DNA from: a virus
Lineage: Duplodnaviria > Heunggongvirae > Uroviricota > Caudoviricetes
DNA: 64,000 nucleotides
Strand: one strand, 5' to 3'
IMG/VR virus record: IMGVR_UViG_3300013126_000015
Coordinates: 22,818 to 86,817 of that record
Of this stretch, positions 9,196-58,544 are shown piece by piece (the first letter of the stretch is position 1; each line of letters opens with the position of its first letter). Under the pieces are notes generated by a model. That model was not told where the DNA came from, made no database searches, and saw nothing but the letters and a program-made list of their open reading frames with translations. The position numbers and the translations under genes were made by a program.

Positions 9196-10377
9196 TTATT
9201 TTACAGTTGATTCGATATAATCAATTTCTTTTTGTGTTAAGTTAAAGTGTTGGTAAAGTTCTTCATCAGTCCATGATTTTGTTAAATCAATATCAGGAAT
9301 TTGTTCAAATAATGATTTTGAGTTCGGGGTATTTGTTTTAACCGATTTAATCAATGTTTTAATGGTATTGGTTTCCAGATATTGTTTTAAATTTATAGAT
9401 TCAATTTCAGATGATGTTGTTAAGAACACTACAGAATACCCACCAACATGATTAACATCGGCAACCTTAACGGCACCAATATTATTAAATGCCCCCATGT
9501 TTGGCAACACCACTTTAAATAATCCCTTTCCAGTTATTTCATTACCAACTGTAATAATACTAGTATTATATTTTTCACCTTGTTTACCAACTCCTGTTAT
9601 AAAAACATCCCCAGTTGTTTGTTCATTAACTTTATTAAGGTTTAATTTGCCGCGCAACCATCTAGTACCTAAATTTTTTGTGGTGTCAAATTTTGTAATA
9701 AATTTAGTTTGAGTATTATTTTCAGATAATATCATTGAATCTGTTAAATTAAATAGTTCTGTGTTGTGGTTAATATCGGTGACCTTGCAATCATCATTGT
9801 CATTTTTTGTCAACAAAAAATGACAAGTTCTCATATTTACGTTGAACCACTTATCACCATGAAAGACTAAATTATTTAATTTAGCGTCATATAAAAATTT
9901 TTTCAATTTTGAAGGTGATGGTCCAGTCCATGCAGATGGTATGACCAATGAAACGATGTTATTAGATAGTTCTACTGATTTATATACAAATTCTGCGGCT
10001 AAATCAATGCTATTAGTTGAATTTCCTTCTTTTCCTTGATAAGGTGGGTTACCTAATACGACATCGAATTTCATGTTAATATCTCCTAAATCTTTAATTA
10101 CGTTCAACCCAATTTTATGAGCGACTACATCTTTAGCAAGGTTGTCTACATATATATGTATTCTGCTTGCTGGTATATTATAATTATACACCAAACTAAT
10201 GGCAAATTCAAGATTAAATAACACTAAAATTGAATTTTTATTTGGAAGGGATGGGATTTGCTCAATCATTTCATTGACTAATTCCAATGGTGTAAAGATT
10301 TCATGAGAACCGGCAAACATGCCTGCTTCTAATTGGATCTTATAACCACGAAACATATCTTCAACTCTAGTGCTCAT
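9196..10377 (-). CDS. gamma-class N6-adenine DNA methyltransferase-like (DVVLGNPPYQ motif IV, FTP motif X)
   Basis: NPPY catalytic motif; motif I degenerate (no glycines). Confidence 0.6.
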   Translation of the reverse strand: MSTRVEDMFRGYKIQLEAGMFAGSHEIFTPLELVNEMIEQIPSLPNKNSILVLFNLEFAISLVYNYNIPASRIHIYVDNLAKDVVAHKIGLNVIKDLGDINMKFDVVLGNPPYQGKEGNSTNSIDLAAEFVYKSVELSNNIVSLVIPSAWTGPSPSKLKKFLYDAKLNNLVFHGDKWFNVNMRTCHFLLTKNDNDDCKVTDINHNTELFNLTDSMILSENNTQTKFITKFDTTKNLGTRWLRGKLNLNKVNEQTTGDVFITGVGKQGEKYNTSIITVGNEITGKGLFKVVLPNMGAFNNIGAVKVADVNHVGGYSVVFLTTSSEIESINLKQYLETNTIKTLIKSVKTNTPNSKSLFEQIPDIDLTKSWTDEELYQHFNLTQKEIDYIESTVK

Positions 10378-10406
10378 ATTGTTCTCCTTATTTAAAGTAT
10401 AATTAA

Positions 10407-10435
10407 ATTATACCTCAATTATAGTAGATTGGCAA
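10407..10435 (-). promoter_or_regulatory. sigma70-type promoter (TTGCCA 10435-10430, TATAAT 10412-10407)
   Basis: 17-nt spacer, AAGGAG SD before ATG 10377. Confidence 0.5.
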
Positions 10436-10992
10436 GTTAATTCTTTTAAAAATAATTCCCAAAATGGTATATTCATATCCACTAGCTGTGCTAGTTGAGC
10501 ATATCCCAATACTTGTATTTTATTATGATACATATCATTTAATATATCTTGACGTAATTCTAATGCTGTGGTAAACAAAGTCATATTTACTGGTTGCATA
10601 TAATACATACACATTGACTTTGCGACAAAGTTACTGATATGATCTTCGTTGGCTGTCAATTGATACTTAACATCATTTCGGAATTTTATTTGCACAGTAT
10701 GATTGGTACTGTCGTGGCTTTTGCCAACACCATCAACCCCCATATCAGGACCATCAACTAAAGAATCCCATGGACAGTAATCGATGATATTGATACGTTT
10801 ATCGATTGGACTGCAGTTGATCAATACTTCAACCAATGCTTCAAATCCATCACCACGATATGTTTCTGGTTCCCACATATCTGGTTGTTGTAAACTTTGG
10901 GTTGTTATACGTTTCATGAAAGTACTTAATTTTGTACAACCATTTAACAATGCAACAGGATCATAACAGGTATTTTTGAATCTATGTTTCAT
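10408..10992 (-). CDS. Mrr-like restriction endonuclease domain protein (FEALV...GVDGVG...VQIK)
   Basis: Mrr_cat-like PD-(D/E)xK pattern. Confidence 0.4.
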   Translation of the reverse strand: MKHRFKNTCYDPVALLNGCTKLSTFMKRITTQSLQQPDMWEPETYRGDGFEALVEVLINCSPIDKRINIIDYCPWDSLVDGPDMGVDGVGKSHDSTNHTVQIKFRNDVKYQLTANEDHISNFVAKSMCMYYMQPVNMTLFTTALELRQDILNDMYHNKIQVLGYAQLAQLVDMNIPFWELFLKELTCQSTIIEV

Positions 10993-11016
10993 TATTATCT
11001 CCTAAAGTATAATTTT

Positions 11017-11044
11017 ATTATACCAGATAATTAAAACATGTCAA
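11017..11044 (-). promoter_or_regulatory. sigma70-type promoter (TTGACA 11044-11039, TATAAT 11022-11017)
   Basis: 16-nt spacer. Confidence 0.5.
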
Positions 11045-12566
11045 GAAAATTATCAAACGATGGTGTTATTGGATTTGTTGGTTCTGGTGCAATTTCATCG
11101 AATAGTGACAGAAACATATTAAATGCTTGAGTTTTTTTATGTGATGATAATTGTGCCATATCGTCAAAGAAATCATTTGTTTCAATTTCATGAAATATAT
11201 CTTGCAACCACCATAAACTTCTATTATCAGTATCGGTATGATATGCATCTTCGATTTGGTTTTGATCTTTGGCATGTAAAGATTTCCAATTGGTTTCTTT
11301 TACATTTTCGATATTGATAGGATACCCAGCTTTACGAATAGCATGTACATATTCCCGAACAATTTCACGACCATCAGTATCACCGTTGACAACTGATACT
11401 GATATCCATGCTTGTTTTTTCTTTGATGGGTCTGGTTTATATACCCGAACAGCTCTACCAATTGTTTGTATCATCTTAGCTAATCCCATATTACGTAGGA
11501 TGCAAACACCGGTAATACCATCAACGTCGATTCCTTCACTCAAAATATCATAGTGAAAGATTAAACAGTTACGACCATCAATTTTAATTTGATTCAAGAA
11601 ATCAGTTCTTGATCTGCATTGTACTCCATTGATACATTCTCCATGTTTACTAGTCACCGTACATATATCATGGTCAGGTAATATATCATGGATTTTATCA
11701 ATATTATCCATTACAGTTTTTACATCATTAGTACCATTCAATGCAAATAATATTTTGCTAAAACCTAATTCTGGCGCAGTTAATTTATGTTGTTCTGATG
11801 CGAGTGCTATTACTTTACTGACGATGGTTTGTTGTTCAACATCATCCCGTTCTTTACCTCGAACATCAGTAGTGTTCGGAATATCACTATACATGATATG
11901 TAATCTCGGAGCAACTATTATTCCACGGTCGATCAATACTGCCGGTTCAATCTCGTATATCCGTTCACCATAAACATTGGTATTATTAAGACCCCTACCG
12001 GTTTCACTTGCTGTAAATTTTTCAGTTGCAGTAAAGAATAATTTAACTCTACCATTCAATTCCACAATACTTTTGTGGAATTCTTCAGCTACACAATATT
12101 GACTTTCATCTGCAATGATAGTATCAAAATCAATACCTTTTAATTTATAACTGCTATGGTACGTGCTAAAGATAACCAAATCTTTACCCATGCGACTAGC
12201 ACGGGCAATTTCATCAATGACTACTTGTTCGCTAGTTGTTGATTTTTCACTCCATTTAACCTTAGTGTAATCTGGTTCATGTTTACCACTATGGAAAGCT
12301 AATCCAAGATATTCTCGTGATGTAATAAAACCACGAATATCTTTAGCTAATTGATTACTTAACATGATTCTAGGCGATATTACTAAAGTAACGCCATGTT
12401 TGCGATTTTTATTCATCTGATGTTCAATAATCATTGCTTCTATCAATGTTTTGCCACCACCAGTAGGGATAACGATGCGTCCAGTTGTTAATCCATGATT
12501 GCGCTTAATCGAAGATACCGTTGCATTGTATGCTTCTTGTTGATGCTGTCTAGGTATGATTTTCAT
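11031..12566 (-). CDS. SF2 DNA helicase, ResIII/restriction Res-subunit-like (PTGGGKT, DESQ, TAT, QTIGRAVR motifs)
   Basis: helicase motifs I, II, III, VI read from translation. Confidence 0.7.
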   Translation of the reverse strand: MKIIPRQHQQEAYNATVSSIKRNHGLTTGRIVIPTGGGKTLIEAMIIEHQMNKNRKHGVTLVISPRIMLSNQLAKDIRGFITSREYLGLAFHSGKHEPDYTKVKWSEKSTTSEQVVIDEIARASRMGKDLVIFSTYHSSYKLKGIDFDTIIADESQYCVAEEFHKSIVELNGRVKLFFTATEKFTASETGRGLNNTNVYGERIYEIEPAVLIDRGIIVAPRLHIMYSDIPNTTDVRGKERDDVEQQTIVSKVIALASEQHKLTAPELGFSKILFALNGTNDVKTVMDNIDKIHDILPDHDICTVTSKHGECINGVQCRSRTDFLNQIKIDGRNCLIFHYDILSEGIDVDGITGVCILRNMGLAKMIQTIGRAVRVYKPDPSKKKQAWISVSVVNGDTDGREIVREYVHAIRKAGYPINIENVKETNWKSLHAKDQNQIEDAYHTDTDNRSLWWLQDIFHEIETNDFFDDMAQLSSHKKTQAFNMFLSLFDEIAPEPTNPITPSFDNFLDMF

Positions 12567-22325: not shown

Positions 22326-23020
22326 TATTTTTCAAACCTTGTGGTAATTGGGTCAATTAATACTGCTTGCCCATTTTTTCTTCTCATGATATTATTAAAG
22401 TGCATATCAGGTTCAAATTGATTATTTCTGAATAATGGCTCTAATATTCTTAATGCTTGGGAAAATTGTTTATTTGTAGTTGAATGTCGAATTTTATTTC
22501 TGGTATTATCATCAAAAAATGCTTTCGAAAATTTAACATGGGCTGGGAATTTTCCACTAGGATCAGTCGAGTTGACAATATCCATTATTCCTAGATTATT
22601 ACACAATAATTCTACACCATTATTTGGATAGTCAAATAATCGTTCCATTACAATTAATAATTGATATTTTGCCTTTGATTGTTCTGGTTCCAAAAAGAAA
22701 TCATGTTGTTGTTCAAACCATTCCATATCATCATATGAAAATTTACTTATATCATATAATTTGAATTTAAGGATTTTTGGAAAGAATTGGTTTTCTGGAT
22801 GATTATGGCATACTCTTAAAAATTGATATGCTGGATCTGATGGACCACTTATTGCAACAAATTTAAGGATGATATTCGGGTTATTTTGAACAGCATATGC
22901 TATAGCTTGAATTCCATTTCCAAGATATGATAATTGTGGTTTATTAATTACACCAGATAATGGTTTTTTTGATGTGGGTATTTCTATTTTCTTTTCTAAG
23001 ATGAGTTCATGAATTTTCAT
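22325..23020 (-). CDS. kinase-like paralog with CTS-like N-terminus (MKIHELILE); degenerate catalytic motif
   Basis: C-terminus ...NGQAVLIDP paralogous to 23024 gene. Confidence 0.4.
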   Translation of the reverse strand: MKIHELILEKKIEIPTSKKPLSGVINKPQLSYLGNGIQAIAYAVQNNPNIILKFVAISGPSDPAYQFLRVCHNHPENQFFPKILKFKLYDISKFSYDDMEWFEQQHDFFLEPEQSKAKYQLLIVMERLFDYPNNGVELLCNNLGIMDIVNSTDPSGKFPAHVKFSKAFFDDNTRNKIRHSTTNKQFSQALRILEPLFRNNQFEPDMHFNNIMRRKNGQAVLIDPITTRFEK

Positions 23021-29821: not shown

Positions 29822-31282
29822 CTATGCTCTAGCTCGTGATTTTACTTCGTCCCACGACTGCCGGTATTCTCTAAACCCGTCTTTGTACCACAATCTCCAT
29901 CCAGCCGCTGGAGTCAAAAAATTAAAGATATTTCCTTCTGATATAGCGTCATATACTTCAATGTCACCATTTTCATTCTCTCTGCAGCGAACTAATCCTT
30001 TTAATGATTTTTTTCCAGAATCAGTAATAGGATCTTTAATAGTAGCAACCCATTTTCCATATCTAAAATTTGCAGTTGATTTGAAACTGAAACCAAAATC
30101 ATCACGCGAACCAAAATGGGTGATACCTGCTCCAGAACCTAAGCAAAAGTTGTCCATAGCAAAGCCAGCATCAACCCACCCTTGACAAATTTCTCGAACT
30201 GTATTTACTTTTACACCATCTCCCTGTATTACACCAGTTGATGGGTGTAATACCTTGTACCCTTTATTATTAATAGTTACCCCAAAGGTAGCTTCCCAAT
30301 CTTTGCCTACTAATCCTGGTTCGATTGTCATATCTCCGGTATCTGGTCTAGCAATCATGCGCCCACCAGATGCCAAAATTCTATCTTTTAATCTAGTACC
30401 AAGATATTCTCTCACAAATCTTCTTGAATCATATGTATCAATCACTGCTGACATAAATGGTAAACCAATGCCGCGTTTATGTCTTTCCACTGCCTCAAAT
30501 AATCTATCTACTACCATAACAGCTGCACCGAAATCATCTTTATTTTCCGCATCTGAATGAGCACATGATACACTATGTTCACTCGCTTCAATAGATGAAG
30601 TTGATGGTTTATATGTTCCATACAAGCGTTTAATATACCCATTTGCTCTAATACAGTCTGACCCATCAAATAGTGCGGCATGTGCAATACCAGAGATTAC
30701 TGCTGCTTCATCTGGACTATCAGCACTTCTGTCGCCAAACTCATGCATCATGTAGTTAACATTGGTGGTGTCAGTTCCGGTAAGTTCACAGAATTCTATA
30801 AGAGTCAACCTCATTGCTCTGCAAACAGATGCAACAGTAGACATTTTCCAAATCAATGCTTGTGAAAATGTTTCAAAATAGGTTACTAACCACGCAAAAT
30901 TAGACACAGTATTAATAATACCAACTATTGGCGTTTGTGGTGCAACTATTCGGCCTTCTTCTACTCCATAAATTGCTAATGGTATTTTTCCATCAAGTTC
31001 TCGTACAATACGTTCCCATCCTTCTCTATTGAAGTGGTATCCTTGTTCAGTAACTTCAACTTCTGCTTCATCAATCATTTCCATTGTGATTCTAGTAGCT
31101 GCAAAAATTGAAGATAATAGGGTAATACCCATTGAAACAATATGGGTAGAATATGAACTTGACTTTCGTGGAACCATATTTGCATAACCATATTCGTCGC
31201 CAGTAGGTGCTTCTAGCCAGTGATTAATTTTATACCCATCTGCACACAAAATTATATTAAATGGTTTTAAATGTTCTAACAT
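29822..31282 (-). CDS. nadV: nicotinamide phosphoribosyltransferase
   Basis: full-length NAMPT-like translation; GAGGA SD. Confidence 0.75.
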   Translation of the reverse strand: MLEHLKPFNIILCADGYKINHWLEAPTGDEYGYANMVPRKSSSYSTHIVSMGITLLSSIFAATRITMEMIDEAEVEVTEQGYHFNREGWERIVRELDGKIPLAIYGVEEGRIVAPQTPIVGIINTVSNFAWLVTYFETFSQALIWKMSTVASVCRAMRLTLIEFCELTGTDTTNVNYMMHEFGDRSADSPDEAAVISGIAHAALFDGSDCIRANGYIKRLYGTYKPSTSSIEASEHSVSCAHSDAENKDDFGAAVMVVDRLFEAVERHKRGIGLPFMSAVIDTYDSRRFVREYLGTRLKDRILASGGRMIARPDTGDMTIEPGLVGKDWEATFGVTINNKGYKVLHPSTGVIQGDGVKVNTVREICQGWVDAGFAMDNFCLGSGAGITHFGSRDDFGFSFKSTANFRYGKWVATIKDPITDSGKKSLKGLVRCRENENGDIEVYDAISEGNIFNFLTPAAGWRLWYKDGFREYRQSWDEVKSRARA

Positions 31283-33054: not shown

Positions 33055-34089
33055 TCACCTGCATATTGAAACACCCCAAGTAATTATCGAAAGATGGTCC
33101 TCGAACAAATATTCCTCCATATCTAATACATCATCAATTGGAAACCACTTGGCAAATCTAGCATCATCAGATCCTTTAACTTTAGACAACGGTCCAGATG
33201 GTAATTCTATTGCATAAGCATGTGTGATAGTTCGTCCTCGCAATGATCGTGACGGTTTATCGAACACCTGCGTTCCTTTTATAGAACCTCTTAATACTGG
33301 CTCTGGTATTTTGATTTTAGTTTCTTCCCTTAACTCTCTTATAACACCATCAATCAAATATTCGGACTGGTTTACAAATCCCCCAGGAAGTGCCCATAAT
33401 CCTTTTCCAGGACTCGCTTTACGTTGCACCAATAGGACATGACCTGATTGAATCACAACAGCGTCAGTGGTCACAAAAGTGGGTGGGTATGGAGCATTGT
33501 CCCAGGATTTTTTATAACCTTGAATATGATTAAACTCATCAACCAGATTTTTATAATCATCACTTTTTGTCCACTCTCTTAAATCGTTCTGCAGTTGGGA
33601 ATCAATTAACGGTCTATCTTTCCAATTAAATATTGCTCCAGTAAATAATTGTTCCCGGACAGTGGTTGCATCAATATCAATGATATGATCGGTATTAATA
33701 AAATCCCATTGTGGGAAATAATCAATATAATAGGAAGTAGAATCTTTTTTGCAGCCCACGATACCAATTTTTGGATCGGTAATGCCACATGTTTCTTTTT
33801 TGACTATTCGTTGAACTTGTTGAATCCACTCTTGATCAACTCGGAAATCACGGATACCATGACAACTAATTCTGGATGAATCTTGTTTTGGTAGTTGATT
33901 CAGTAACATTGCAGCACGTTCATACCACTTCCACGGGTTTTTAATCGTTCGTGGTTGAAAGCTGGAGCCGAATAATACTATTACTTTATTTGAACGTTCT
34001 AATGCTGTAGTTACATTATGAACATGTGCGTGAGTTGGTGGTTGCATTCTGCCAATGTATACAATGGCATCATATTTTTGTTTTGTCAT
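33055..34089 (-). CDS. natV: bifunctional NMN adenylyltransferase / Nudix ADP-ribose pyrophosphatase
   Basis: N-terminal HxxH nucleotidyltransferase motif (PPTHAHVH) plus Nudix box (GGFVNQSEYLIDGVIRELREETK). Confidence 0.7.
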   Translation of the reverse strand: MTKQKYDAIVYIGRMQPPTHAHVHNVTTALERSNKVIVLFGSSFQPRTIKNPWKWYERAAMLLNQLPKQDSSRISCHGIRDFRVDQEWIQQVQRIVKKETCGITDPKIGIVGCKKDSTSYYIDYFPQWDFINTDHIIDIDATTVREQLFTGAIFNWKDRPLIDSQLQNDLREWTKSDDYKNLVDEFNHIQGYKKSWDNAPYPPTFVTTDAVVIQSGHVLLVQRKASPGKGLWALPGGFVNQSEYLIDGVIRELREETKIKIPEPVLRGSIKGTQVFDKPSRSLRGRTITHAYAIELPSGPLSKVKGSDDARFAKWFPIDDVLDMEEYLFEDHLSIITWGVSICR

Positions 34090-47563: not shown

Positions 47564-47592
47564 TTGCCAAACGTGATAAATACACGTAGTAA
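47564..47592 (+). promoter_or_regulatory. sigma70-type promoter (TTGCCA 47564-47569, 17 nt, TAGTAA 47587-47592)
   Basis: read directly. Confidence 0.4.
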
Positions 47593-47608
47593 ATTAAGGA
47601 ATCTTATT

Positions 47609-48040
47609 ATGCTTCGTAATAATTGGGATGGTATAGACAGACGTAATCAATGGGATGGTAGTGATCGTAGACGGGCTAATCGATATGATGAACTGGATTC
47701 ACCTGTTATTGAACGTGAACGTATTATCGAAGTGGCACAGTCTCAATCGCAATCACCACAATCGTCGCAACCTAAATGGTTATCGCCAGGGATAACAATG
47801 CCTATCATATTTTCATTACTAATGTCAATCGGTGGTTTTGTATTTACATTGTATAATAAAGTGGCATCGTTAGAATACAAACAATCGACCATATTTGAAA
47901 AAATGGATGATTTAAAACAGACAGATCTTGAACTAAAAGGAATGTTCAAAGATCAAGAAATAGTTAAACAAAAACTATTGGATAGAATTTCTAGCATTGA
48001 AGAAACTGTAATGGAGTCATTAAGACATAAGCAACAATGA
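47609..48040 (+). CDS. membrane-anchored coiled-coil protein with WDG(I/S)DRR repeats (143 aa); track start 47564 is TTG
   Basis: AAGGA SD before ATG 47609; one TM segment. Confidence 0.45.
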   Translation: MLRNNWDGIDRRNQWDGSDRRRANRYDELDSPVIERERIIEVAQSQSQSPQSSQPKWLSPGITMPIIFSLLMSIGGFVFTLYNKVASLEYKQSTIFEKMDDLKQTDLELKGMFKDQEIVKQKLLDRISSIEETVMESLRHKQQ

Positions 48041-48477
48041 AAATTTTAATGTCATATATTTTCGTAATAGTGACGTTTATTTCCACTAAGATTTCTGCAG
48101 AACCAACCACAGTTGTATCACATCCATGGGTCTATGAAACTAATTTATCAAGATATGATTTAGTTCGGATATTTACTAGGAAAGATAATAGATGGAAAGA
48201 CGGTCATAAAATAACGGTGTTTATCAAGGGACAGGATTCACTTGAACATCGCATTTTTGTTATGGATATATTACAGTTAACCCCTTATAAATACCATTCT
48301 ATAGTTGATAGTGTAGTATATTCTGGTGAAACAACACCACCGATAGAAGTAGCAACCGATAGCGAGATGATCGATACTCTATCAAAAACTCCATATTCAA
48401 TTGGATATCTAAATTATACCGTACTAATCAGTGATGACAAAAAAATATCAAAAATTACTATTCTAAATTATGATTAA
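48037..48477 (+). CDS. secreted protein with signal peptide (146 aa)
   Basis: hydrophobic N-terminus, ATGA overlap. Confidence 0.45.
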   Translation: MKILMSYIFVIVTFISTKISAEPTTVVSHPWVYETNLSRYDLVRIFTRKDNRWKDGHKITVFIKGQDSLEHRIFVMDILQLTPYKYHSIVDSVVYSGETTPPIEVATDSEMIDTLSKTPYSIGYLNYTVLISDDKKISKITILNYD

Positions 48478-49576
48478 AATATTATCAGTTATATTGTGCA
48501 TTATATCGTATAATGCACTTGCAGTTATGACCGAATTTGCTGGGATGAAATTATACACAAACGGGTATGTTGGTTATAAATATGTTACCTCATCAGTCAA
48601 AAATACTACAATTCCAAGTGCACCAGAATTAGGATTAGAGTTATCACTTGATATCAACGAACATTGGTCAGCTTACACACAATTCGCATATGATTCAAAT
48701 GCATATAATTCTCTTGTGTATAGTTTTCTGTCATATGAACATGTATTATATGACGATCTTACAGTGAGAATAAATGCCGGAAAATTGCGACATAATACTG
48801 GGTTATATAATAATACTCGTATAAATCCACGGGCTAGACCAGGAGTGATAGTACCACAGTCAATATACTGGGATTCACTTAGCCATATCCTCACTAGCGG
48901 AGAAGGTGTTAATTTAACATTAAAATACAAGAATTTGGAACTTGGATATACAATAGATAATCCGGTGGTGACCGATCCAGTAACCGAAGCTACTATATGG
49001 ACTGGTCCATTACTTCGGTCAATTAATGCATCATTTGGTTCTCACCAAATGGCAACAATTAAGTACTCATTTGATTCTATACCACTAGAGTTAAAATCAT
49101 CATGGACGAAAATAGATTTAGGGAATGACAATTCACCTATGCTTGCATACATATTACCATCATATGCCAATAGTAATCAAGGGGTACAATTCATCACTAC
49201 TGGTGGAATTTATACCCATAAGGACTGGACGTTTTCTGCAGAACATCTATATTTAAAACCATTTTATACTAATTGGTTTACTGACTATAATTCACAGGGG
49301 TTATCATTTACTATTAGGAAAGAAATAACAGAACATGTCTCATTGTATACAAATTATAACCAATATACCACGAAACCACTAGTTTCAACTCCATATCATG
49401 AATATTCAAAAGATATTAATATTGGAGTAAATTATCATCAAAAGAATTGGATGATTGGGGCAGAAGTTCATCACATAAATGGTAGCAGATGGATGAATCC
49501 TGCTGATTATGTTAATAATAATTCTGATTACAAAGAATGGTGGATGGTTGGGTTAAACGCCGTTTATTTCTTTTAG
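48470..49576 (+). CDS. outer-membrane beta-barrel-like protein (signal peptide; C-terminal ...NAVYFF)
   Basis: alternating amphipathic pattern, aromatic girdle, terminal Phe. Confidence 0.45.
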   Translation: MIKILSVILCIISYNALAVMTEFAGMKLYTNGYVGYKYVTSSVKNTTIPSAPELGLELSLDINEHWSAYTQFAYDSNAYNSLVYSFLSYEHVLYDDLTVRINAGKLRHNTGLYNNTRINPRARPGVIVPQSIYWDSLSHILTSGEGVNLTLKYKNLELGYTIDNPVVTDPVTEATIWTGPLLRSINASFGSHQMATIKYSFDSIPLELKSSWTKIDLGNDNSPMLAYILPSYANSNQGVQFITTGGIYTHKDWTFSAEHLYLKPFYTNWFTDYNSQGLSFTIRKEITEHVSLYTNYNQYTTKPLVSTPYHEYSKDINIGVNYHQKNWMIGAEVHHINGSRWMNPADYVNNNSDYKEWWMVGLNAVYFF

Positions 49577-49876: not shown

Positions 49877-50083
49877 TCAATCCATCCAGTCTTTTCTGGA
49901 TCTTTTATTCCAATCTGAAACTGCTTCTTCAGCGGTTCCACCAAGAACAGCAGCAGTACAGATCACACAACCACATTGCCATACAGTTCGTTCACGATTG
50001 ATAGGATAGATTGCATCATCCAAATCATTTGCTGTGAATTTATGTTCACAAAATGGACAATCCTTTAATTCTACAGTAGACAT
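49877..50083 (-). CDS. Lar-family restriction-alleviation-like zinc-ribbon protein
   Basis: CPFC...C.C four-Cys pattern, ~68 aa. Confidence 0.4.
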   Translation of the reverse strand: MSTVELKDCPFCEHKFTANDLDDAIYPINRERTVWQCGCVICTAAVLGGTAEEAVSDWNKRSRKDWMD

Positions 50084-50319
50084 TATTTATATTTTAAATC
50101 ATAGTAATATTCAGTCGGAAACTCACCTTTTCTAATAGATCCACCATTTTTGTCCCATTTCATAATATGCTCAAATATAATACCATTTTGCAACGTCACA
50201 TATACTGTGCCATTTATATATGGTGATGAGTTATCCCATGAATGTAATTTCACAGGATACCCACACCTTGTTGTAAAAGTTGCGCTATGAAAATCAAATT
50301 CTGTTATTAATTTATTCAT
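50083..50319 (-). CDS. hypothetical protein (78 aa)
   Basis: ORF. Confidence 0.4.
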   Translation of the reverse strand: MNKLITEFDFHSATFTTRCGYPVKLHSWDNSSPYINGTVYVTLQNGIIFEHIMKWDKNGGSIRKGEFPTEYYYDLKYK

Positions 50320-50857
50320 GATGTGTTTTTTCCGGTAATGGTATATTTAACATTTCCATAATTAACGCATCCAAATTATAAACTCTACAGTTGTTAGTAT
50401 CCATTCCAACATCTTTGATTCTACCAGTTGTGTTCGTTTTGTTGCCATGCATATGCCCGTGCAGGTGCAATGACCCATGATGCTTACCATTCCAATATTC
50501 TATCGGATAATGAAACAGTACAATTTTATGTCCATGCATTTTCAGCTCTTTGTAATCATGTATCGACTCGAAACATTCTCTGAATGCTCTTTTTTCTAAT
50601 GGCGAATCATCATGATTTCCAACTATTAGGATTTTTCTGCCATTCAATCGATGCAAAAAATCAATGGTTGGGTTGATTTTACCAAAAGTAATATCACCTA
50701 GAATATAGGTTAAATCATTTGGACCTACATCTTGATTCCAATTTGTTTCGATTGTATTATTCATTTCATCCACATCTGCAAATGGTCTGCTTGTTGAGCA
50801 GAATTGCATGATTTTTTTGTGGTATATGTGGATATCCGATGTGATAAATGTGTTCAT
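50312..50857 (-). CDS. calcineurin-like metallophosphoesterase (GDxxxG, GNHD, GHxH motifs)
   Basis: ILGDITFG, IVGNHDD, GHMHG. Confidence 0.6.
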   Translation of the reverse strand: MNTFITSDIHIYHKKIMQFCSTSRPFADVDEMNNTIETNWNQDVGPNDLTYILGDITFGKINPTIDFLHRLNGRKILIVGNHDDSPLEKRAFRECFESIHDYKELKMHGHKIVLFHYPIEYWNGKHHGSLHLHGHMHGNKTNTTGRIKDVGMDTNNCRVYNLDALIMEMLNIPLPEKTHHE

Positions 50858-50858
50858 A

Positions 50859-51719
50859 TTAAGTGTCTAAAAAGTCTTGGACTATTTCCAGTCGATCTTG
50901 TTCAGAAGTTTCTAAAAATTGCTCTTTAGTAAAGTTCAAATGAATGAACTCTATCAACTCATGAAAATCTTCGTCAAATTTTTGTTTATAATTAGTTGAA
51001 AAAATTTCTTCCATTTTTTTGGTACGTGCTAAAAACTTACTTACCAAATAATAAGGTGATTTCATTTTCAACACTGTTGGTGATTCTAAATCATAAACTA
51101 ACCATCCTTCATGGTTGCATTTTTTAGTTTCTTCTACTAAATCACTGAAACGTATTTCTTTATGTTCAGGACGTTTTACATCCCACAATTTTGCCACAGA
51201 ATCCAAAAAAAGTTCAGGGTATAACTCTGAATTTAAATATTTAGTACGTGCACCAATTAAATATGCACCGAATTCTTCTGTGATTATATGTGGATCACGC
51301 TCGTCACATATTTCAAACATAAAAGTACTATTATGGTACTGCTTCAATAATGAACTCATTTTATCCAATGGTAAATTGTCTTTGGCCATTTGAACGAAAT
51401 CACTATCTAATGATCCAGTGGTAGATACCAATATTTCACCATTATACCATGATACTGCTGCAAAAAATCCATTTATTTTTCGAACAGCACGAACCATGTG
51501 GTTTCGATTAATGACTGTTCCATTTTCATGGAAATTGAATATTTTGGTGAAACCATATTGAACCACATTACCTGCAGCATCGTACACTGTTCCACGAGCA
51601 TTAACCAAGTTTGGATCTTCATCCCAACGATTGTTGTAAAAAACTTTGCGATGGTATTTATGGATTTCTAAACCATTGTCATATTTTTTTACTTTTACTA
51701 ATTCGTCATACTTGCTCAC
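50859..51719 (-). CDS. RNA ligase-family nucleotidyltransferase (Rnl2-like; KINGF motif I, FEICDE motif III, EGWLV motif IV, LKMKSP motif V)
   Basis: motifs in translation. Confidence 0.5.
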   Translation of the reverse strand: MSKYDELVKVKKYDNGLEIHKYHRKVFYNNRWDEDPNLVNARGTVYDAAGNVVQYGFTKIFNFHENGTVINRNHMVRAVRKINGFFAAVSWYNGEILVSTTGSLDSDFVQMAKDNLPLDKMSSLLKQYHNSTFMFEICDERDPHIITEEFGAYLIGARTKYLNSELYPELFLDSVAKLWDVKRPEHKEIRFSDLVEETKKCNHEGWLVYDLESPTVLKMKSPYYLVSKFLARTKKMEEIFSTNYKQKFDEDFHELIEFIHLNFTKEQFLETSEQDRLEIVQDFLDT

Positions 51720-51731
51720 GGTGTTCTCCTA

Positions 51732-51968
51732 TTAGAATAGTTTAAGTTTACACCATTTTAAGAGTCGTGTCAACCAATTTTCATTATTTAATTTTTTCCA
51801 ATTAGTTATCCTAATATCACACTGATACTCGGTTTCCATTATAGATATTTCTGCTTGAATTCCGTTAACTGTATCCATGTCATTAGGTGTTTTTCTAATA
51901 ACCCAAGAAAAATAACTAGTAGTCAATTTTGCAAAATGTTTTTCAAATACAATATAATAGGTATTCAT
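51732..51968 (-). CDS. hypothetical protein (78 aa)
   Basis: ORF. Confidence 0.4.
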   Translation of the reverse strand: MNTYYIVFEKHFAKLTTSYFSWVIRKTPNDMDTVNGIQAEISIMETEYQCDIRITNWKKLNNENWLTRLLKWCKLKLF

Positions 51969-54791: not shown

Positions 54792-54970
54792 CTTAAAATA
54801 AAGTAAGTGTAATCTCGCTGGTTATCAAATTGTATCACATCTTTTAGAATTTTGCAATGGAATTCTTTTTCGAATTCTTTAGTAGATGGTTCGGTGCCAT
54901 GTGTATTTTCATACCATTCATAGGCACTGAACACTTCATTACTTCTGAATAGTAACTCATGTTTTTTCAT
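54782..54970 (-). CDS. family II small protein (...DYTYFILRWC)
   Basis: C-terminal motif. Confidence 0.45.
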   Translation of the reverse strand: MKKHELLFRSNEVFSAYEWYENTHGTEPSTKEFEKEFHCKILKDVIQFDNQRDYTYFILRWC

Positions 54971-55266
54971 TATTCACCAAATTTTAACACAAATAATGTT
55001 CTATCCTGTTCTTTTTTAAAGTAAAAACGAAAATATCCATCCTCATCAATGCCATGATAGAATCTATCTTTAAATGATTCTTCGCACCATAAGATTGATT
55101 CTACCAATTGATCATGTGAGTCATGCATACTTGTAAAATTTGATCTTACGTAATAAATGAATGCTGTTTCGTGAGTGTTATCTAGTTGGCCAACTGATTT
55201 CACTATTACCGGAGTCCAGTCATATCTATTTCTCATTGAAAAAATCGATGCTGATGGGATTGACAT
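54970..55266 (-). CDS. family II small protein (...DRTLFVLKFGE); track ORF trimmed to internal ATG 55266
   Basis: AT-rich low-complexity N-terminal extension in track ORF is implausible. Confidence 0.4.
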   Translation of the reverse strand: MSIPSASIFSMRNRYDWTPVIVKSVGQLDNTHETAFIYYVRSNFTSMHDSHDQLVESILWCEESFKDRFYHGIDEDGYFRFYFKKEQDRTLFVLKFGE

Positions 55267-55330
55267 AGGTTGTACACCCACGATGTCATTGGCAATTGAT
55301 TGTGGTATTATCTTTCTTAATAATGGTATA

Positions 55331-55516
55331 TTAATCTCTGTCACGGTGCTCATGATGGTGATGTCGGTTATGATGCTGATTATGATGGTATTGGTATTGT
55401 GGATAATACCTTGGGTAATATACAGGTTGAACTGGGTAATAATAGCTGTCGTATCCACGGTAATTGTGGGCACATCCAACTAAAAATAATAACGATAATA
55501 CTAATAATTTATTCAT
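55331..55516 (-). CDS. His/Tyr/Pro-rich lipoprotein (61 aa; lipobox LVGC)
   Basis: MNKLLVLSLLFLVGCA then YYYPVQPVYYPRYYP...HHNRHHHHEH. Confidence 0.5.
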   Translation of the reverse strand: MNKLLVLSLLFLVGCAHNYRGYDSYYYPVQPVYYPRYYPQYQYHHNQHHNRHHHHEHRDRD

Positions 55517-56459
55517 AAATTGTAACACAGTTTTTTCCATTGTTTTTGGCTTTATACAAAGCAATATCAGATCGTTTATAAGTATCGATCCATGATGAAT
55601 CGGTGTATTTATCACACATTGCCGCGCCTATACTTATAGTAATTGGTTGTTCTAACTTTAACATAGGTTGGCTATTCTGTACTATTACTCTAATTTTTTC
55701 ACACAATGATGGTAATTTGTGAGGTTTAGTATCACTGCAGATGATGACGAATTCTTCTCCACCAAATCTGCAAACTACATCCGTAATTCTTACGGCATTT
55801 TTGATAACATTAGCGACATGTTTTAATACTATATCACCTACATCATGCCCAAAAGTATCATTAATTATTTTAAAATCATCTAAATCAATGCTTATGATAG
55901 AGAATGGTATTGATGATCTATATGAGTTATTCCATAACCGTACCAATTTGTCTTCTGCATAACGTCTATTATATAACCCAGTAAGTACATCTGTTATTAA
56001 TTGGTGATATAAATTGTTAGCATGCTCTTCCAAATATACATTATGTTTAGACAAATTATCATTTTCTAATTTGATTGAATATATCTGATTAACAATATAC
56101 ATGGCATTTATTAATCTACCATGAAGTTCAGTAGTGTTTATTGGTTTTTTTATAAAATCATTTGCACCAGCTTTGAATGCTAATTGTAATACGGACATAT
56201 CTGTTTCGACTGTCATCATAATTATATAATACCATTTATGATGTTGTCTAAGTATTTTACATAATTCAATACCATCGATTGAATTTAAATGACAGTCGGC
56301 AATTATTACATCGGGGTTATGTAATGGGATATTTAATATGGCAGATTCTATTGAGTGTTCACAATATACATTAAACTGCATTGATGACAAATAAGAACTC
56401 AATATAATAAGATTGATTTCATCATCATCAATCAATAATATATTAAATCCTCTATTCAT
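55509..56459 (-). CDS. response-regulator receiver + GGDEF diguanylate cyclase (GGEEF active site)
   Basis: N-terminal REC (LLIDDDE...D), C-terminal RFGGEEF. Confidence 0.7.
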   Translation of the reverse strand: MNRGFNILLIDDDEINLIILSSYLSSMQFNVYCEHSIESAILNIPLHNPDVIIADCHLNSIDGIELCKILRQHHKWYYIIMMTVETDMSVLQLAFKAGANDFIKKPINTTELHGRLINAMYIVNQIYSIKLENDNLSKHNVYLEEHANNLYHQLITDVLTGLYNRRYAEDKLVRLWNNSYRSSIPFSIISIDLDDFKIINDTFGHDVGDIVLKHVANVIKNAVRITDVVCRFGGEEFVIICSDTKPHKLPSLCEKIRVIVQNSQPMLKLEQPITISIGAAMCDKYTDSSWIDTYKRSDIALYKAKNNGKNCVTIYE

Positions 56460-56880: not shown

Positions 56881-57109
56881 CCCACCCTGATAACCATTTT
56901 ATTTTTTTATCAGTATCTCTATAGACCAGGATAGGATAATTCCACATTAAGCAAAACAGTATTGCTAACACCCACCACGGAATTTGTGTAAAAAATTCTG
57001 GTACATCATCTCTATATACTAGAACACTAGCGATAAAACCAACTATTCCTTCAAATTCAGTAACCCTAGAAATGGTCGTCGTCGCTTTCAATGATGTCAT
57101 ATTTTCCAA
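56855..57109 (-). CDS. small membrane protein (84 aa)
   Basis: TM segment WWVLAILFCLMW. Confidence 0.4.
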   Translation of the reverse strand: MENMTSLKATTTISRVTEFEGIVGFIASVLVYRDDVPEFFTQIPWWVLAILFCLMWNYPILVYRDTDKKIKWLSGWASNKNTNI

Positions 57110-58544
57110 CTGTTGCCGCCTTTACTGCCGGTTGTTCAGTATTATTTCTTGAAAATGTCATTTGTCTAAGTTTAGCGGTGTTCATTTCAACTTTAGATGG
57201 TTTTATAAATGTTTGTTCTTCGACATTTGGTGTCACTTCTGATGATTTGGTAAGATTGTTTAAGTATAGTTGCGACGTTGAAATAACTGGTGCATCATCA
57301 TCGTCATCATCAGAATCATCATCTGTTATTCTCATTGTACTAACATCATACTTCAATGTCAAGTTTTTTCCGACACCGCTTGAATTTCTGGTTTTTAACA
57401 ACTGTAATTGATACTTACCATGATCTTTTAATGCATGTGATGAATTAATGGCGAACACGTTGTCAGCAGTTTGTATCTTTGATATACCACCGGAAATGTG
57501 AGCATGATTAAACACTACTTCATCAATTGAACTTCTGTTTAACTGGGATGCAGTGATTACCACACATTTCTTTTCTGCCGCTAATACACGTAATTCTTCA
57601 CTTACGTATTTGTCTTTAATAAATAAATTTTCTGCAGATATTTTTGCACGTACTGGATGTAACAAATCTAAGTAATCTACTGCCAAGATGTCTACTTTTT
57701 TCCCATACCTAACTTCATATTCTTTTAAATATGATCGCAAATCATTACATGTTTTTCCACTAGGAATGTACTTTATCTGTAAAGACCCATTTTTTTTACC
57801 ATGCATGACAACTTGTAACTCAACATCATCTATATTTTTAAATATGTTTTTGGTTTCTACTCCGGTTATCATGGCATCCATTCTCATTGCTACCAAATCT
57901 TCGGCTAGTTCCAATGAAACATAGACAACATTTAATCCTTGAAATGACCAATTTAATGCCAAGTTAGCTAGAAATAAAGATTTACCACCACCAGATTGTG
58001 CACAGAATATAGATAACTCACCACGATTCATGCCACCATATAAATATTTGTCAAGTTTTGTCCATCCAGTTGACATCTGACCATTAGTATCTCTAATTCG
58101 CATCAACCGTGTACGCGGATCTTGATAATAATTTAGTCCTAAGTCTCTATTTAACCCTATTTGAACTGCAGTTTTAATTTTATCTTCAACTAATCCATAC
58201 TCACCAGACTCCAGTAATTCAGCAGATTCAATAATTGCTTTTTCTAATGATTTATGTCTAGTAAATATTTCGAATTGTTCTATCACCCAATCAAAATATG
58301 CTTGTTTAATATCAGATAATGGTTCTAGGTTAGAACCTGTCGCTGCATTAACTATTTCAAACGTTGGAATAGTTGAATGGTCATTTACAAAATTATAAAT
58401 GAACTCTGCCGGAGCTTGTAATTTTTTATCAAATAACGTGTGATCAAATATTGATTGGCATATAACGAATGTTTCTGCATCAGATAAAAACAATTCCAAG
58501 TATATTTGCTGTACTTCTAATCCATATGTTGCTGGTAATGTCAT
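57066..58544 (-). CDS. 41: DnaB-family replicative DNA helicase (T4 gp41-like)
   Basis: Walker A CAQSGGGKS, RecA-like C-terminal domain, adjacent primase. Confidence 0.75.
   Translation of the reverse strand: MTLPATYGLEVQQIYLELFLSDAETFVICQSIFDHTLFDKKLQAPAEFIYNFVNDHSTIPTFEIVNAATGSNLEPLSDIKQAYFDWVIEQFEIFTRHKSLEKAIIESAELLESGEYGLVEDKIKTAVQIGLNRDLGLNYYQDPRTRLMRIRDTNGQMSTGWTKLDKYLYGGMNRGELSIFCAQSGGGKSLFLANLALNWSFQGLNVVYVSLELAEDLVAMRMDAMITGVETKNIFKNIDDVELQVVMHGKKNGSLQIKYIPSGKTCNDLRSYLKEYEVRYGKKVDILAVDYLDLLHPVRAKISAENLFIKDKYVSEELRVLAAEKKCVVITASQLNRSSIDEVVFNHAHISGGISKIQTADNVFAINSSHALKDHGKYQLQLLKTRNSSGVGKNLTLKYDVSTMRITDDDSDDDDDDAPVISTSQLYLNNLTKSSEVTPNVEEQTFIKPSKVEMNTAKLRQMTFSRNNTEQPAVKAATVGKYDIIESDDDHF

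Follow-up and report, generated by a model that had tools for sequence, protein, structure and literature searches.

Divergent phage genes for an Rnl1-like RNA ligase and an aq_1665-family metallophosphoesterase, candidate parts of a known type of RNA-repair module

The stretch of DNA analyzed here, hereafter the window, is 64,000 nucleotides (nt) long and covers positions 22,818 to 86,817 of the IMG/VR virus record IMGVR_UViG_3300013126_000015, from a virus of the class Caudoviricetes. An original prediction, made from the sequence alone, described two adjacent open reading frames (ORFs) on its minus strand as an RNA ligase and a calcineurin-type phosphoesterase that together form a candidate RNA-repair cassette, and both ORFs lie where it placed them. 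The first, at 50859..51719 (-), encodes an Rnl1-like ATP-dependent RNA ligase of 286 residues, with an adenylyltransferase domain (residues ~1-228) followed by a short helical C-terminal module (residues ~229-286). The second, at 50312..50857 (-), encodes a binuclear metallophosphoesterase of the aq_1665 family with 181 residues. The ligase gene starts with a GTG codon, and its homologues begin at the equivalent position; inspection of the sequence places a Shine-Dalgarno-like AGGAG 6 nt 5' of this start, at 51726..51730 (-). A 78-residue ORF upstream of the ligase ends at 51732-51734, which sets the ligase gene within a tightly packed array of minus-strand genes.

The two genes had been thought to overlap at their start and stop codons; instead they are separated by a single nucleotide. 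The junction reads TAA-t-ATG (50855..50861 (-)), with the ligase stop codon at 50861-50859 and the phosphoesterase start codon at 50857-50855, and inspection revealed no Shine-Dalgarno sequence at this junction that would belong to the phosphoesterase itself. A 1-nt junction of this kind, lacking a separate Shine-Dalgarno, makes translational coupling of the ligase and the phosphoesterase likely. A real overlap is present at the other end of the phosphoesterase gene, whose stop codon shares 8 nt (ATGAATAA, 50312-50319) with the ATG of the next ORF. This ORF (78 residues, 50083-50319 (-)) has no family match and is not conserved at this site among relatives; co-translation with the cassette is possible. 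A promoter scan of the sequence performed no better than on shuffled sequence (50 found against 49.4 expected), and we therefore claim no operon boundaries. In public annotation the phosphoesterase appears as P0121 (165 residues, window 50312-50809), a call that begins at Met17 of our reading and so drops the invariant D8-x-H10 motif. The 181-residue reading is the correct one, and the P0121 start is an annotation error that makes the protein look inactive.

Neither protein alone gave a match in Pfam or NCBIfam, and a single-sequence phmmer search with the ligase against the Protein Data Bank (PDB) returned only noise; family profiles and structure prediction were needed to identify the pair. 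Against the PHROG profiles the ligase matched phrog_562 (RNA ligase) with E=5e-43, and the phosphoesterase matched phrog_547 ('phosphoesterase') with E=1.4e-50, values that are too low for either match to be due to chance. A search of 5.8 billion proteins recovered 893 relatives of the ligase, many of them with PF09511 (RNA_lig_T4_1); the window ligase has no Pfam match at E<=0.1, while homologues with 76-88% identity to it have precomputed PF09511 matches. When a profile of 33 ligase sequences was compared with all PDB sequences it found T4 Rnl1 (2c5u, E=9.4e-12) and the LIG domain of the fungal tRNA ligase Trl1 (9qw7, E=1.9e-5). The AlphaFold (AF2) model of the ligase, with a predicted local distance difference test (pLDDT) score of 92.8, gave a consistent result in Foldseek. 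T4 Rnl1 and Trl1-LIG were at the top of the list (E~1e-13, TMq 0.59-0.72), followed by Rnl3, Rnl5 and Rnl2; the entries 2c5u, 5tt6 and 9do4 (E~1e-13, TMq 0.68-0.72) stood level with Trl1-LIG. DNA ligases ranked far below the RNA ligases in this fold search. Profile and fold searches thus both group the protein with the Rnl1/Trl1 type and not with the DNA ligases, as the original prediction had supposed.

Motifs I, III, IV and V, all of which had been named in that prediction, were confirmed by alignment with T4 Rnl1 and by their invariance among the 33 homologues. Motif I, K81-I-N-G-F (51465..51479 (-)), aligns with K99-E-D-G of T4 Rnl1; K81, the predicted AMP-accepting lysine, is invariant together with N83 and G84. 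Motif III, F-M-F-E-I-C-D-E (51300..51323 (-)), aligns with 'tanFEfv' of T4 Rnl1, which contains E159, and has F135 and E136 as its invariant residues. In motif IV, E204-G205-W-L-V-Y-D-L (51087..51110 (-)), the invariant E204-G205 aligns with E227-G228, and in motif V, L-K218-M-K220-S-P (51054..51071 (-)), the invariant K218 and K220 align with K240-I-K242. The residues R42, K59 and F61 are also invariant and correspond to R54, K75 and F77 of T4, Rnl1-specific residues of the N-subdomain whose role has been described (PMC6379707); the same work reports the KxNG form of motif I for fungal Trl1. The ligase is predicted to carry out ATP-dependent sealing of RNA ends with 5'-PO4 and 3'-OH.

The similarity to T4 Rnl1 does not extend over the whole protein. 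The window ligase is 88 residues shorter, and its hhalign alignment covers T4 residues 33-251 only. The last ~57 residues form a short helical module in which hhalign found no sequence counterpart of the T4 Rnl1 C-domain (residues 255-374), the domain that confers tRNA specificity. Since it is the appended C-domain that defines a clade of RNA ligases (PMC6379707), the protein appears from its sequence to be an Rnl1-like adenylyltransferase with a short C-terminal module of its own and not a strict member of Rnl1.

The metal-binding motifs of the phosphoesterase that had been noted previously, G54-D55, G80-N81-H82-D83 and G134-H135-x-H137, are present and invariant in 32 homologues, as are D8-x-H10 and H116, which had not been listed. 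The protein has the beta-sandwich phosphoesterase fold and belongs to the uncharacterized aq_1665 family. Aquifex aeolicus aq_1665 (PDB 1xm7) is a bacterial structural-genomics metallophosphoesterase without known function or context, and it allows no transfer of function. The next structural neighbours come from the generic superfamily: lambda phosphatase (score 9.0), the nuclease MPE of Pseudomonas putida (8.8) and the phosphatase domain of Clostridium thermocellum Pnkp (CthPnkp; 7.9, rank 30). Beyond the superfamily fold we found no specific kinship with either the CthPnkp phosphatase domain or lambda phosphatase. The earlier description of the enzyme as calcineurin type, as in the bacterial Pnkp/Hen1 systems, therefore holds for the superfamily fold, but the implied relationship to CthPnkp/Hen1 gives way to membership of the aq_1665 family.

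Some indication of function comes from the genes with which this family is found. Among 47 phosphoesterase loci on bacterial and archaeal genome contigs or metagenome-assembled genome (MAG) contigs, three have an Rnl1-like ligase (one of them also with a kinase), four have AAA_33 kinases and/or PF09414 RNA ligases, and four have a directly adjacent RlaP-like protein of unconfirmed identity; other neighbours include a second metallophosphoesterase and a DEDD-like exonuclease. Mycobacteriophage Rey has a homologue of the phosphoesterase and an RtcB ligase 3 kb apart. The family thus associates with several types of RNA ligase (Rnl1-like, PF09414 and RtcB) without being dedicated to them, and this range of partners favours a role at RNA ends. 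The RlaP-like neighbour is a ~283-residue protein encoded directly upstream of the phosphoesterase homologue, with a median gap of 43 nt, in the Clostridia MAG contigs L095, L098, L100 and L102. Its sequence led us to suspect a nucleotidyltransferase of the RlaP type (RNA-ligase-associated Pol-beta), an identity that is unconfirmed as the protein has no Pfam match.

The organization of the locus was compared with that of 80 IMG/VR loci carrying the ligase, counting partner genes up to 6 kb away. Of these loci, 64 have a phosphoesterase gene no more than 6 kb from the ligase gene, and in 39 of them the distance is at most 300 nt. An initial, stricter search recovered a kinase in 64 of the loci and both partners in 52; a broader iterative search increased the number of loci with a Pnk-family kinase within 6 kb to 67. 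The order of the genes is shuffled among the loci (phosphoesterase-ligase-kinase in 27, kinase-ligase-phosphoesterase in 16, and a fusion of kinase and ligase in 12), and they are nearly always on the same strand. In annotated isolates this kinase is a P-loop protein of ~130 residues labelled 'ATPase', whose profile matches the CthPnk kinase domain, T4 Pnk, the Mucorales RNA 5'-OH kinase and Pnkp1; these matches identify it as a polynucleotide 5'-kinase of the Pnk family. The nearest relatives outside the clade of the window ligase, with 55-59% identity, are fusions of ~418 residues with an N-terminal kinase and a C-terminal ligase, and a neighbour-joining tree places the window clade as sister to this kinase-fusion clade.

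The same association is seen in sequenced phages. Among 50,697 phage records the ligase occurs in 617 and the kinase in 623, with near-identical distributions over host genera (199 and 198, respectively, for Escherichia, 175 and 173 for Pseudomonas, 36 and 36 for Klebsiella, and 24 and 24 for Acinetobacter). Phosphoesterase, RNA ligase and kinase (annotated ATPase) stand in a row in Erwinia phage pEp_SNUABM_01, Pseudomonas phage phiK7A1 and Escherichia coli phage ESCO13. Taken together, the linkage, the gene fusions and the co-occurrence provide strong comparative evidence for a putative heal-and-seal RNA-repair module.

Such a module is not unusual: hundreds of phage genomes have the same genes in their annotation, and a part in RNA repair has already been predicted for them (PMC7824862; PMC12846349). 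Phage ligases of the Rnl1 and Rnl2 types are described as working with Pnk and with phosphoesterases that are occasionally calcineurin-like (PMC7824862), and in Pakpunavirus the kinase and the ligase have been annotated as tRNA repair, with a remark on the missing phosphatase domain (PMC12846349). In the literature searched we found no biochemical characterization of either the ligase clade or the phosphoesterase family. The locus described here is a divergent new case of this known, predicted type of system.

The junction between the two genes differs among the closest relatives. In these, and in L007 of the fusion clade, a gene for a membrane protein of ~140 residues (range ~120-145) with two predicted transmembrane segments lies between the ligase and phosphoesterase genes (L005 10863-11300; L007 11241-11651; L004 1120-1479), and it is absent from the window. 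The protein carries an N-terminal 'KxxKKSxHY' and a C-terminal 'KDKxCFKxxF' motif, has no family match, and is found in a few other loci (L039, L048, L070, L077 and L078). We considered this gene as a relocated kinase and rejected it, as it encodes a membrane protein without a P-loop. The window phosphoesterase shares 59% identity with its counterpart in L007 and 43% with the one in L005, yet L005 has the closer ligase; this discordance points to recombination at the ligase-phosphoesterase junction.

We propose, with moderate confidence, that the pair comprises the sealing and 3'-healing parts of the common phage module for RNA repair, directed against RNA-cleaving defences of the host, with the kinase either encoded elsewhere or lost. 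The full module would consist of the Rnl1-like ligase, the aq_1665-type metallophosphoesterase and a 5'-OH kinase of the Pnk type. Following cleavage of RNA by anticodon nucleases, HEPN or toxin RNases, the metallophosphoesterase, with a binuclear centre of the Mn2+ type, would open the cyclic phosphate and remove the 2'/3'-phosphate to leave a 3'-OH; the kinase, which is not part of the window cassette, would phosphorylate the 5'-OH; and the ligase would self-adenylylate on K81, transfer AMP to the 5'-phosphate and seal the break. The ligase and phosphoesterase are probably coupled in translation, within what may be an early or anti-defence-like gene array beside a gene for a Lar-like protein.

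A number of observations weigh against this proposal, and the first of these concerns the kinase. The original prediction had suggested looking for a separate kinase gene. The sequence read consists of the window and the contig L008, which extends ~9 kb past its high end, ~73 kb in total, and no kinase of the Pnk type was found in it by tblastn, three hidden Markov models (HMMs), jackhmmer or Walker-A scans. The queries comprised three annotated kinases (for tblastn and as an HMM), a larger HMM with the fused kinase domains among its sequences, and T4-Pnk-like kinases for jackhmmer; these searches found nothing in L005, L009 or L010 either. The only ORFs with a P-loop in the ~73 kb are those for a DnaB-type helicase, an AAA+ ATPase (PF00004) and a DEAD helicase. 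Nor is there a kinase within 10 kb on either side of the ligase in L005 (78% identity) and the P0002 contig (88%, for which only the gene table was used), which have the most closely related ligases. The pair had been called functionally equivalent to T4 Pnkp plus Rnl1; the heal-and-seal logic, the conserved linkage and the Pnk kinase of the relatives agree with this, and the missing 5'-kinase in ~73 kb does not.

Further points on the same side come from the two proteins and their distribution. The ligase seems to lack the T4 C-domain that gives tRNA specificity, and the window contains no tRNA genes. Lys119 of motif Ia in T4 Rnl1, reportedly found essential by Wang et al. in 2003, aligns with the invariant T101 in 'STTGS' of the window ligase. 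The aq_1665 phosphoesterase family has no characterized member, and the structural neighbours of the protein include nucleases (P. putida MPE, Mre11 and PolD DP1) and lipid or nucleotide hydrolases; any role in RNA repair, including a 2',3'-phosphoesterase activity, is a predicted one. The family is also more widespread than the ligase, with 1519 as opposed to 617 phage records (about 2.5x), often occurs by itself (Vibrio phage D33 and Staphylococcus Kayvirus are examples), and has no recognizable repair partner at about 37 of the 47 cellular or MAG loci.

The extent of the genome bears directly on the missing kinase. Two jumbo phages, Pseudomonas PA5oct (287 kb) and Agrobacterium Atu_ph07 (490 kb), have helicases with 45-50% identity to the DnaB-type helicase of the window (57066-58544 (-)), the GC content of the window is ~32%, and a megablast search of the region against the 50,697 phage records gave no match, which indicates that it has no close sequenced relative. 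From these observations the window probably derives from an unsequenced lineage of jumbo phages. The genome has been seen only in part: the window matches a Logan contig of 75.6 kb (SRR11049220_13399) and, judged by protein identity, a JGI contig of 102 kb (102,445 nt) that carries P0121, and exact-match scans of metagenome and viral contigs for the first bases of the window gave no match. Given the jumbo-phage-like character of the genome, a kinase may be encoded elsewhere in it. Loci without a kinase nearby are a recurrent arrangement: there are seven among those with full 6-kb flanks (L059, L061, L066, L078, L086, L088 and L090), and six of these keep the ligase-phosphoesterase pair, L066 being without a phosphoesterase as well. 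Several of the seven are on contigs of 168-302 kb.

This recurrence bears on a second reading, possible if rather unlikely, in which the pair is a truly kinase-less two-enzyme variant that acts on breaks already carrying a 5'-phosphate, the phosphoesterase removing a blocking 3'-phosphate or trimming the 3' end before the ligase seals it. Nicks made by metal-dependent RNases of the PIN or Toprim type, or gaps with 5'-P/3'-P ends, are equally tentative examples of the lesions that such a variant might repair. The absence of a kinase from the ~73 kb and from the surroundings of the two most closely related ligases is as this reading would have it, as are the six loci that keep the pair, the position of the window clade as a distinct branch next to the kinase-fusion clade, and the presence of 3'-processing nucleases among the structural neighbours of the phosphoesterase. 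However, where phage genomes are complete, the ligase and the kinase are found together almost 1:1. The present genome is only partly seen and its helicase is most like those of phages of 287-490 kb; a kinase could lie farther off here, just as it could in the loci on 168-302 kb contigs. The chemistry also counts against it. Breaks with 5'-P and 3'-OH ends need no phosphoesterase, and the common defence RNases are not known to produce 5'-P/3'-P breaks. A more specific form, in which a distinct clade of RNA ligases with its own ~57-residue C-module and a new 3'-end healer of the aq_1665 type work without any 5'-kinase, seems to us quite improbable. A kinase-less pair, if real in this jumbo-phage-like lineage, would imply that hosts inflict a class of RNA lesion in which the 5' end has a phosphate and the 3' end is blocked, a class so far not tied to phage defence.

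The wide distribution of the phosphoesterase raises an alternative that we judge unlikely, namely that this enzyme is independent of the ligase. It would then be an early or counter-defence enzyme, such as a second-messenger phosphodiesterase, a protein phosphatase or a DNA nuclease, that has come to lie beside the ligase by way of a mobile accessory region. Besides the 2.5-fold excess of phage genomes with this family, often without an RNA-repair neighbour, the discordant identities to L007 and L005 suggest that the gene is exchanged independently; its neighbours in the window are small accessory ORFs and the Lar-like anti-restriction gene; and the characterized proteins nearest to it in fold are phosphodiesterases and nucleases that serve other pathways. 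The linkage speaks against this alternative: 64 of the 80 loci show it, 39 with a distance of at most 300 nt, nearly always on one strand and across very different groups of phages, and it survives repeated reshuffling of the gene order. The 1-nt junction without a Shine-Dalgarno suggests coupled translation, and three ligase families as partners would be hard to account for without a shared pathway.

It is very improbable that the pair acts on DNA, with the phosphoesterase as a 3'-phosphatase or 3'-nuclease and the ligase repairing nicked or damaged phage DNA. Enzymes of the Pnk type and metallophosphoesterases such as MPE and Mre11 do act on DNA ends, the cassette is situated among replication genes (for a DnaB-type helicase, a primase and a RecA-like protein), and in relatives a gene for an ATP-dependent DNA ligase lies only a few genes away. 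The ligase, however, is of the Rnl1/Trl1 type and has no OB domain of the kind found in DNA ligases, which score far lower by fold, and the dedicated DNA ligase of the relatives would make a second one redundant. We give almost no weight to the idea that the ligase-like protein is mainly a catalyst of tail-fibre attachment, as in the moonlighting of T4 gp63. It derives from the name of phrog_562, 'RNA ligase and tail fiber protein attachment catalyst', which was taken over from T4 gp63. The gene is surrounded by replication and accessory genes instead of tail genes and is conserved in company with a kinase and a phosphoesterase, and its product lacks the T4 C-domain.

Comparison with characterized or annotated systems shows which features of the proposed module for RNA repair are shared with these. 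The closest counterpart is the three-gene phage cassette of phosphoesterase, RNA ligase and ~130-residue Pnk found in Phapecoctavirus ESCO13 (gp117-gp115), Henunavirus pEp_SNUABM_01 (gp223, gp221 and gp220), phiK7A1 (037c-034c), Pakpunavirus and others. The families are orthologous, with up to 46% identity for the ligase and, for the phosphoesterase, 38.9% to pEp_SNUABM_01 and about 35-38% to the phapecoctaviruses and pakpunaviruses; both genes are on the same strand and tightly linked, and genes for NAD salvage (NAMPT and NMNAT-Nudix) occur in the wider neighbourhood. The window differs in the order of its genes, ligase then phosphoesterase, in having no accompanying kinase, in its high divergence and in its jumbo-phage-like context.

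With T4 Rnl1 (gp63) and Pnkp, which counter PrrC, the window system shares the Rnl1 adenylyltransferase domain, the counterparts of R54, K75 and F77, the four motifs and the heal-and-seal logic. It departs from T4 Rnl1 in the absence of a T4-type C-terminal domain for tRNA specificity, in the KxNG form of motif I (KEDG in T4) and in the threonine at the position of Lys119, and from T4 Pnkp in that its 3'-healing enzyme is a binuclear metallophosphoesterase and not an HAD (DxDxT) phosphatase, and in that the kinase is a small separate or fused protein in relatives and absent from the window. The Pnkp-Hen1 system of C. thermocellum (kinase, metallophosphoesterase and Rnl4 ligase) resembles the relatives of the window cassette, which have a P-loop Pnk, a binuclear metallophosphoesterase and an ATP-dependent ligase with an Rnl1-like adenylyltransferase; their kinase matches the CthPnk kinase domain best. 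No Hen1 was noticed in the gene tables, although no systematic scan of the window for Hen1 was made. Fungal and plant Trl1 (LIG-KIN-CPD; the Rnl6 clade) has the KxNG motif I and a fold similarity to the window ligase comparable to that of T4 Rnl1, and the sister clade physically fuses a ligase to a P-loop polynucleotide kinase, as Trl1 does. Unlike in Trl1, the order of this fusion is kinase-ligase and not ligase-kinase, and the cyclic-phosphate step would use a metalloenzyme that leaves a 2',3'-OH instead of a 2H cyclic phosphodiesterase that leaves a 2'-PO4. The Trl1 C-domain with its RxxR site for the 2'-PO4 is also missing, in a comparison that did not examine this feature in detail.

RNA-cleaving immunity, exemplified by PrrC, RloC, Cas13, PARIS, retron Eco7 and HEPN toxins, is now seen as a major arm of bacterial defence, and RNA repair is one of the few means by which a phage can undo damage instead of avoiding it. 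The module is present in more than 600 sequenced phages, including candidates for therapy (phAPEC8-like phages and Pakpunavirus). A defined substrate for the aq_1665 family, together with a compact Rnl1-like ligase without a tRNA-specificity domain, would be useful both for the understanding of counter-defence and as a source of tools for RNA ligation. The locus adds a lineage in which ligase and phosphoesterase are coupled and the kinase is not nearby, which is of interest only if the kinase is truly absent from the complete genome.

Several other genes in the window are of interest in their own right. A restriction-alleviation protein of the Lar type (PF14354, E=7.6e-5, which does not reach the gathering score; phrog_599, 2.6e-6) is encoded at 49877-50083 (-), two genes 3' of the phosphoesterase. 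Its gene keeps this position beside the phosphoesterase in relatives, which suggests an anti-defence neighbourhood. A cluster at 9196-12566 (-) encodes an Eco57I-type methyltransferase-like protein (393 residues), a 194-residue protein with a PD-(D/E)xK-like 'D...QIK', and a DEAD/ResIII helicase (511 residues); as a whole it looks like a phage-borne module for restriction-modification or a defence-like function. Genes for NAD+ salvage are found at 29822-31282 (-), for a nicotinamide phosphoribosyltransferase (phrog_448, 6e-110), and at 33055-34089 (-), for a fusion of nicotinamide mononucleotide (NMN) adenylyltransferase and Nudix (phrog_395, 6e-71); distant relatives, too, have these genes in the vicinity of the RNA-repair cassette.

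Within the minus-strand array, three genes at 47564-49576 (+) form a cassette on the opposite strand. They encode a 158-residue protein with a transmembrane segment and two proteins with signal peptides, of 146 and 368 residues, the last of which ends in ...VYFF, like an outer-membrane beta-barrel. No Pfam or PHROG match was found for this cassette, which is conserved in relatives (L005 13328-15313); its features suggest that it is moron-like and that the host is Gram-negative. At 55509-56459 (-) lies a gene for a response-regulator receiver joined to a GGDEF diguanylate cyclase (Pfam GGDEF 9.6e-44, Response_reg 3.7e-24), conserved in the relative contig with 88% identity, and its product could manipulate cyclic di-GMP signalling of the host. 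Finally, a small ORF at 54970-55353 (-), of 127 residues as called in L010, has a precomputed match to PF07068 (the T4 Gp23 major capsid family) and is far too short for a capsid protein; similar small ORFs are present in L005, L006 and the P0002 contig.

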